The translations under genes and the position numbers were made by a program. Below, piece after piece: positions 1,314-3,306 of a stretch of DNA of 64,000 bases (its first letter is position 1; each line of letters opens with the position of its first letter). The notes under the pieces are model-generated. The model saw only the letters and a program-made list of their open reading frames with translations. It was not told the DNA's origin and searched no databases. The DNA lies in assembly GCF_056712565.1 (NCBI RefSeq), contig NZ_CM160072.1, one strand, 5' to 3'.

Positions 1314-1970
1314 ATGCACTCCTGGAAAAAGAAACTTGTAGTATCACAATTAGCATTGGCTTGCACTCTGGCTATCACCTCTCAGGCTAATGCAGCAAAC
1401 TATGATACCTGGGGGTATCATGACAACACCACGACCGATTTAGTTTGGCCGTATGACACTGACAATGATGGAATTGCCGATGCTGGCGGCATGGACCCGA
1501 TGGGTTCAGACGGTAACTACGTAACTTACAATGGTTTTGTTTACTATAACAATGCCAATGGCGATTTCGATACTGTCTTTAAAGGCGATACCGTTAACGG
1601 TACCATTTCTACTTATTACTTGAATCATGATTACGCTAGCGGTTCTGTTAACCAGGTAGATATCAGCAATTCAGTAATTCATGGGGCAATCACCTCTGAA
1701 CTGCCATTTGGTTATTACAGCATTACTCCTGCAGAAGTTAATGCTAAAGGTGAAGTTGTAACTCCACAGACCTATAATGGCTATAATTTCTATAACGGAA
1801 TCACTACTGACCTTGACTACAATTGGTACGATGGTGACGTATTCACTCTGAACGTATCCAATTCCACCATTGATGATGACTATGAAGCTCTTTACTTCAC
1901 TGACACATATCTTGATGGTGATAAATCTAAGTCAACCAATGAAACGTTCTATACCGCTCTGGGTGTTGCA
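1314..1970 (+). pseudogene. yaiT: autotransporter (yaiT-like), N-terminal fragment truncated by IS2
   Basis: ORF 1314..2057 starts with signal peptide MHSWKKKLVVSQLALACTLAITSQANA after SD GAGGAGGG; from 1971 the frame runs into the IS2 terminus. Confidence 0.8.
1966..1970. repeat. IS2 target-site duplication TTGCA, left copy
   Basis: TTGCA directly abuts the IS2 terminus at 1971 and recurs at 3302-3306. Confidence 0.8.
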
Positions 1971-1981
1971 TGGATTTGCCC

Positions 1982-2887
1982 CTATATTTCCAGACACCTG
2001 TTATCACTTAACCCATTACTGGCTTGCTGCCGTAGATATTCCCGTGGCGAGCGATAACCCAGTGCACTATGCGGATGCCATTCGTTATAATGCTCGAACG
2101 CCTCTGCAAGGTTCTTTGCTGCCGTTAACCCGTCTGGTTTGGGCATGACACTGATGTAGTCACGCTTTATCGTTTTCACGAAGCTCTCTGCTATGCCGTT
2201 ACTCTCCGGACTCCGCACCGCCGTGCTCTTCGGTTCAAGCCCCAACATCCGGGCAAACTGCCGTGTTTCATTAGCCCGGTAGCATGAACCATTATCCGTC
2301 AGCCACTCTACTGGAGACGCCGGAAGCTCGTTGCCGAAGCGGCGTTCCACCGCTCCCAGCATGACGTCCTGTACTGTTTCACTGTTGAAGCCGCCCGTAG
2401 TGACCGCCCAGTGCAGTGCCTCACGGTCACAGCAGTCCAGCGCGAACGTGACTCGCAGTTTTTCTCCGTTATCACAGCGGAACTCGAACCCGTCAGAGCA
2501 CCATCGCTGATTACTTTCTTTCACAGCCACTCTGCCTGTATGTGCCCGTTTCGATGGCGGTACAGCAGGTTTTCGCTCAAGCAACAGCGCATTCTGGCGC
2601 ATGATCCGGTAAACACGTTTGGCATTGATCGCAGGCATACCATCAAGTTCTGCCTGTCTGCGAAGCAGCGCCCATACCCGACGATAACCATACGTGGGCA
2701 GCTCTCCGATAACATGGTGTATACGGAGAAGCACATCCGTATCATCAGTGTGACGACTGCGGCGGCCATCCATCCAGTCATCGGTTCGTCTGAGAATGAC
2801 GTGCAACTGCGCACGCGACACCCGGAGACAACGGCTGACTAAGCTTACTCCCCATCCCCGGGCAATAAGGGCGCGTGCGCTATCCAC
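1982..2887 (-). CDS. insD: IS2 transposase OrfB (InsD), DDE integrase-like catalytic part
   Basis: 301-aa [37 protein letters not shown]..., recognised as IS2 InsD; overlaps insC 3' end in the -1 frame. Confidence 0.93.
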
Positions 2888-3210
2888 TTTTTTGCCCGTC
2901 CATATTCAACGGCTTCTTTGAGGAGTTCATTTTCCATCGTTTTCTTGCCGAGCAGGCGCTGGAGTTCTTTAATCTGCTTCATGGCGGCAGCAAGTTCAGA
3001 GGCAGGAACAACCTGTTCTCCGGCGGCGACAGCAGTAAGACTTCCTTCCTGGTATTGCTTACGCCAGAGAAATAACTGGCTGGCTGCTACACCATGTTGC
3101 CGGGCAACGAGGGAGACCGTCATCCCTGGTTCAAAGCTCTGCTGAACAATTGCGATCTTTTCCTGTGTGGTACGCCGTCTGCGTTTCTCCGGTCCTAAGA
3201 CATCAATCAT
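2845..3210 (-). CDS. insC: IS2 transposase OrfA (InsC), HTH DNA-binding part
   Basis: ATG at 3210 preceded by GGAGAG; translation [41 protein letters not shown]... (121 aa); ORF-track start 3255 rejected as upstream extension. Confidence 0.9.
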
Positions 3211-3301
3211 CTGCTCTCCAATGACTAGTCTAAAAACTAGTATTAAGACTATCACTTAAATAAGTGATATTGGTTGTCTGGAGATTCAGGGGGCCAGTCT
3301 A

Positions 3302-3306
3302 TTGCA
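3302..3306. repeat. IS2 target-site duplication TTGCA, right copy
   Basis: Direct repeat of 1966-1970 immediately outside the IS2 terminus. Confidence 0.8.

Follow-up and report, generated by a model that had tools for sequence, protein, structure and literature searches.

Here we describe a 64,000-nucleotide stretch of Escherichia coli DNA (NCBI RefSeq assembly GCF_056712565.1, contig NZ_CM160072.1; hereafter the window), in which a complete copy of the insertion sequence (IS) IS2 splits a chromosomal autotransporter gene of the UpaC/EhaB/YaiT type. The arrangement almost certainly arose by a recent insertion of full-length IS2, through IS3-family transposition, into the B2 (UpaC-type) form of this gene in an E. 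coli strain of phylogroup B2 resembling sequence type 95 (ST95), by which the gene was knocked out. The event is an ordinary one, since both the IS and the often disrupted adhesin gene are known, and the insertion site alone is new.

As shown in Table 1, the element is bordered on both sides by the pentanucleotide TTGCA, examined by a script check of the coordinates. The direct repeat is exactly 5 bp long, the sixth position not matching, and the insertion point lies at nt 657 of the gene, after codon 219. With IS2 in place, the open reading frame (ORF) that starts at 1314 runs into the element and ends at a stop codon at 2055-2057, giving a product of 247 aa made of 219 native and 28 IS-encoded residues. 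In-silico removal of 1971-3306 fused 1314-1970 with 3307-5637, and the result was one continuous ORF of 2988 bp encoding 995 aa. The removed segment measures 1336 bp, which is 1 mod 3, so the frame difference between the two host ORFs is the one calculated in a preliminary description of the window; the TTGCA duplication named there was likewise found at 1966-1970 and 3302-3306, with a single copy in genomes whose site is empty.

We then compared the locus with 5426 complete E. coli genomes. The 400-bp empty site constructed in silico matched in one piece over 400/400 positions in B2 genomes, and the site was uninterrupted in 1306 of the 1319 genomes carrying the allele region. Over the adjacent 24.4 kb the nearest genomes were the ST95-like strains SF-468, APEC E18055, APEC O18, and ST95-32, with identities of 100% or nearly 100%. 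The window with the element excised (1-1970 joined to 3307-6000) was identical to SF-468 and APEC E18055 over 4664/4664 bp, with no mismatch or gap, and both strains carry an intact 2988-bp gene with a single TTGCA at the site. A further 25 kb of the window showed 100% identity to these ST95-like strains except at about one position, so that no other divergence has taken place since the element entered. A 400-bp probe spanning the left junction gave no match covering at least 80% of its length in the 5426 genomes, and the right-junction probe gave no one-piece match in the same set. Since the flanks are identical to those of the ST95-like relatives and the junction occurs in 0/5426 genomes, the insertion is younger than the very shallow divergence of these strains. 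On this comparison the insertion is recent and, as far as the 5426-genome collection shows, strain-specific, which bears out the earlier suggestion of a clean, probably recent, and independent event.

The element itself is complete. The preliminary description had called it a full IS2 with imperfect terminal inverted repeats and insC/insD in the usual -1 frameshift arrangement, and each of these points held when the element was examined in detail. The 1331 bp start with TGGATTTGCCCCTATATTTCCAGACA, and the reverse-complement end is TAGACTGGCCCCCTGAATCTCCAGACA; the two termini pair as imperfect inverted repeats when aligned with one gap, in agreement with the published IS2 ends, a 41-bp right repeat (IRR) and a 42-bp left repeat (IRL) (PMC3299598). 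The canonical IRL stands on the right side in window coordinates, which puts the transposase genes on the minus strand, opposite in direction to the split gene. The two genes overlap at AAAAAAG, where a -1 slip in translation gives an unbroken OrfAB of 409 aa. InsC matched the IS2-specific model NF006928 'IS2 repressor TnpA' with 276 bits (cut-off 229), and InsD matched NF006918 'IS2 transposase TnpB' with 713 bits (cut-off 597). The Pfam rve integrase core, rve_3, and HTH_21 were also matched in InsD, an assignment of the DDE/rve core at the family level.

The closest known element is IS2 itself (IS3 family, IS2 group), for example IS2A of K-12 MG1655 (NC_000913.3 381260-382590), which has the same 1331 bp, the same ends, the same orfA/orfB arrangement with the A6G motif, and a 5-bp target duplication. 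The two copies align without gaps at 97.7% identity (30/1331 mismatches). InsC is the same as K-12 InsC, whereas several of the 30 substitutions change amino acids in InsD, which is intact with a handful of replacements. Full-length matches at 100% identity come not from the K-12 chromosomal copy but from IS2 copies carried by many plasmids of E. coli and Salmonella, some of these copies adjoining repE, and this pattern hints at a plasmid-borne donor. Many of the identical copies bear the annotation IS3-family transposase. The 64-kb window holds a single IS2, which has every sequence feature required for transposition and looks transposition-competent.

Table 1 Features of the interrupted locus in window coordinates, followed by IS insertions found at the same locus in other genomes
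Feature	Position	Strand	Remarks
5' autotransporter fragment (upaC/yaiT/ehaB allele), codons 1-219 including putative signal peptide	1314..1970	+	equals first 657 nt of the intact SF-468 / APEC E18055 gene
Left TTGCA target-site duplication copy	1966..1970		empty-site genomes have one TTGCA
Complete IS2, 1331 bp	1971..3301	-	insC/insD opposite in direction to the autotransporter gene
IRR, 41-bp right terminal inverted repeat (TGGATTTGCCCC...)	1971..2011	-	end alignment; length from PMC3299598
orfB / insD, 301 aa, catalytic transposase part	1982..2887	-	NCBIfam NF006918; Pfam rve, rve_3, HTH_21
orfA / insC, 121 aa, IS2 repressor/DNA-binding protein	2845..3210	-	identical to K-12 InsC; NCBIfam NF006928
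A6G (AAAAAAG) programmed -1 frameshift site, orfA to orfB	2887..2893	-	role of motif from PMC3299598
IRL, 42-bp left terminal inverted repeat (TAGACTGGCCCCC...)	3260..3301	-	end alignment; length from PMC3299598
Right TTGCA target-site duplication copy	3302..3306		
3' autotransporter fragment, codons 220-995 and stop	3307..5637	+	rest of passenger, pertactin/autochaperone region, beta-barrel
IS3B in K-12 MG1655	nt 1458 of own allele		GAT duplication
IS2, decayed, in 042, APEC O78, and others	nt 272/283		229 complete genomes, many clinical isolates; same orientation as window IS2; 10 bp of target lost
IS3 in NRZ99027-2	near nt 85		besides the nt 272/283 IS2
ISEc52 in ATCC 25922	nt 1504-1506		
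ISEc52 in GN04133			deletion of nt 583-1277
IS2 in 2018-01-1CC (NZ_AP027869.1, extracted locus 1421-2751)	15-20 bp upstream of ATG (window about 1294-1298)		opposite orientation to window IS2; GTCCC duplication
IS1A in 14EC001	in place of promoter and 5' end		
IS2 in UTME-9			GTTAT duplication
ISSen4 in LR-64-1	nt 2442-2447		
IS1B and ISEc52 in ST131-allele genomes	3' part of gene		

The interrupted gene is the B2 (UpaC-type) allele of K-12 yaiT and O157 ehaB, a chromosomal type Va autotransporter. It lies between hemB and iprA (yaiV)/ampH, as do K-12 yaiT and the genes annotated ehaB elsewhere. The restored 995-aa protein equals WP_000556414.1, annotated in SF-468 and APEC E18055. It contains the Pfam Autotransporter beta-barrel PF03797 at residues 737-974 (E = 1.2e-46) and TIGR01414 at residues 601-995 (297 bits), with Pertactin (E = 3.8e-5) and AC_1 (E = 4.2e-4) matched before the barrel at residues 600-687, and its nearest solved structures are Vag8 and BrkA. 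The N-terminus, MHSWKKKLVVSQLALACTLAITSQANA-A, read by eye, resembles a Sec signal peptide, with AXA as the apparent cleavage site. Compared with K-12 yaiT, the 5' 1.5 kb encoding the passenger is about 69-71% identical at the DNA level and the 3' 1.45 kb 97% identical, with 82% identity between the two proteins overall. The preliminary description, which named the gene yaiT, holds with the qualification that the window allele is of the B2/UpaC type with the divergent 5' 1.5 kb. Across E. coli the gene is mosaic, with a divergent 5' passenger part and a conserved 3' part. The B2-type 5' region (400 bp around the site) was matched at megablast level in only 1319/5426 complete genomes, and the megablast match between this allele and the O157 ehaB form covered just 68% of the locus query.

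EhaB is also named UpaC, and of the two forms that exist, the upaC form belongs to extraintestinal pathogenic E. coli (ExPEC)/B2 strains (PMC8281228); UpaC and EhaB have been grouped as biofilm-promoting autotransporters (PMC9289746). The restored window protein shares with UpaC of uropathogenic E. coli (UPEC) and EhaB of enterohaemorrhagic E. coli (EHEC) O157:H7 the passenger, the pertactin/autochaperone region, the C-terminal beta-barrel, and the chromosomal position; the difference is that IS2 interrupts the window copy, which presumably has no function. The intergenic region between hemB and the autotransporter gene (801-1313) has about 31-33% G+C, which fits a silenced promoter region bound by nucleoid proteins. 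Allsopp and co-workers are said to have reported in 2012 that H-NS represses upaC.

IS2 is known to move by a copy-out-paste-in route, in which a figure-of-eight is followed by a minicircle with the Pjunc promoter and then by integration (PMC3299598). By such a route, as judged from the published IS2 work, the element would have entered after codon 219 and duplicated the 5-bp target TTGCA. A plasmid-borne IS2 may have been the donor, which is plausible because identical IS2 copies are common on plasmids. The gene is thereby cut into a part of 219 aa with a putative signal peptide and a 28-aa IS tail and a remainder of 776 codons, which comprises most of the passenger and the barrel and would have neither a promoter nor a signal peptide of its own. 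Because the gene is split and its downstream part lacks both, no functional UpaC is expected; the allele is likely null, and the strain should make no functional UpaC adhesin. That this ST95-like strain is almost certainly without the adhesin has little meaning beyond strain annotation, while the two IS2 junctions provide a clean strain-specific marker pair. The preliminary description had further stated that precise excision would restore the reading frame. The arithmetic and the restored ORF support this statement, but since IS2 moves by copy-out-paste-in, precise excision stands outside its cycle, and reversion to the 995-aa ORF would depend on slippage from one 5-bp repeat to the other, a rare host-mediated event.

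Insertions at this locus are not confined to the window. At least 10 independent IS events were found (lower part of Table 1), comprising IS2 at four sites, IS3 at two, ISEc52 at no fewer than two, and IS1A, IS1B, and ISSen4 besides, which agrees with the earlier view of the locus as a recurrent IS target. The IS3 that the preliminary description named for the K-12 gene was also found, as IS3B in the yaiT pseudogene (b4580) of MG1655. This pseudogene occupies the same hemB - autotransporter - iprA - ampH locus and stems from an event of the same type, and its transposase is likewise antisense; it differs in that the IS3 is 1258 bp long, the duplication is the 3-bp GAT, the passenger allele is another one, and its site corresponds to roughly nt 1530-1543 of the window allele, against nt 657 for the window IS2. 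The IS2 of strains 042, APEC O78, and others is the same element in the same orientation and the same gene as the window IS2. In this 042-type insertion (NZ_CP042934.2, extracted locus 2874-4200; window about 1585-1596), however, the 10-bp target (CGATACCGTT) is gone, there is no intact duplication, and the IS2 copy of strain 042 is frameshifted; it is therefore older and inherited. The IS2 of 2018-01-1CC runs in the direction of the gene, whose allele is otherwise intact; this IS2 could shut the gene off or, were the gene normally silent, activate it.

A second hit at the very nucleotide of the window insertion was also considered. A 776-aa 'partial' member of a protein cluster, of the ST131-type allele, begins exactly at codon 220, and contigs terminating exactly after codon 219 exist. 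This candidate was rejected, as the contig ends hold empty-site sequence and not IS sequence. Control cut-offs at arbitrary codons (210, 216, 227, 782, and 768 aa) gave 3-7 contigs each, compared with 3 and 5 for the site, which therefore shows no more than the random contig ends that fragmentary assemblies give as background.

The frequency of IS at the locus was compared with that at sbcC, using an equally long control probe about 20 kb away and a spread sample of 60 rows over all genomes for each locus. IS were present in 12/60 rows at the autotransporter locus and in 0/60 at sbcC (Fisher p = 2.7e-4), and a conservative count of 8 distinct events versus 1 still gave a Fisher p of 0.03. The excess of IS over the sbcC locus is real, and relaxed selection, target preference, and selection for loss are not separated by it.

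Several points weigh against a recent knockout of UpaC by IS2 as set out above. The exact 247-aa cut-off product was not found in a large protein collection, which leaves the allele without a second independent sighting; a look-up of the ST131-allele version of the product likewise gave nothing. The loss of function is read from the anatomy of the gene, and the comparison reaches the UpaC of CFT073 only through its ST73 relatives ABU 83972 and Nissle 1917, which are 100% identical over the 400 bp. We take the characterised UpaC of CFT073 to be c0478. That an IS2 copy was wrongly placed in an intact gene during assembly is hardly credible: IS copies are classic mis-join sites and the junction is absent from the other genomes and contigs searched, but a mis-join would not yield a perfect 5-bp duplication exactly at the termini of a full-length element, and on these two features the artefact was rejected. 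A regulatory effect in addition to the knockout, in which one end of IS2 supplies a promoter, outward or hybrid, that drives the downstream fragment, iprA, or antisense transcription toward hemB, is very unlikely. The IS2 ends do hold promoter elements, namely the weak PIRL in IRL and an IRR half-promoter from which Pjunc arises once the minicircle is made (PMC3299598), and the direction out of IRR is the one that leads to hemB, an upstream gene of the minus strand. However, a consensus scan showed no promoter-like site across either junction, with the 10 sites of the region matching the 8.4 ± 2.6 expected from shuffling, the downstream fragment has no signal peptide and would not be secreted even if translated, and the region upstream of iprA is unchanged compared with the relatives.

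A knockout by IS2 is also compatible with a reading that adds a cause to it, namely that the window insertion belongs to a series of recurrent, non-neutral inactivations of this locus, either through attraction of IS to AT-rich and probably H-NS-bound DNA or through selection against expression of the surface adhesin/antigen. We regard this as a reasonable possibility, short of a favoured one. The many independent events and the excess over sbcC speak for it, as do the low G+C of the upstream region (32%) and of the 5' gene fragment (42%). On the other hand, relaxed selection by itself lets IS accumulate in a non-essential and often silent gene, and with sbcC, a housekeeping gene under constraint, as the control, the comparison leaves the causes unseparated. 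The IS2 target duplications TTGCA, GTCCC, and GTTAT have no common motif, the sampled genomes are phylogenetically non-independent, and the apparent second hit at the same site belongs to the background. It is rather doubtful that, in E. coli at large, the hemB-iprA autotransporter locus is a true IS hot spot or undergoes convergent inactivation, with the window IS2 as one fresh example among ten or more independent hits; if it were, the cause would be IS targeting of AT-rich DNA bound by nucleoid proteins, or selection against displaying the adhesin. So many independent IS hits in one adhesin gene across lineages are mildly interesting for the decay of silent surface-protein genes, as a pattern of the species and not of the window.

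Outside IS2, the window, which reaches from hemB past dxs/thiI, consists of core genome that ST95-like strains share at 100% or nearly 100% identity. No RNA family was matched in the 64 kb when Rfam was applied at gathering thresholds. On the minus strand, an antisense ORF of 479 aa (4159-5598) runs through the coding region of the beta-barrel, and it is probably a mechanical ORF only.
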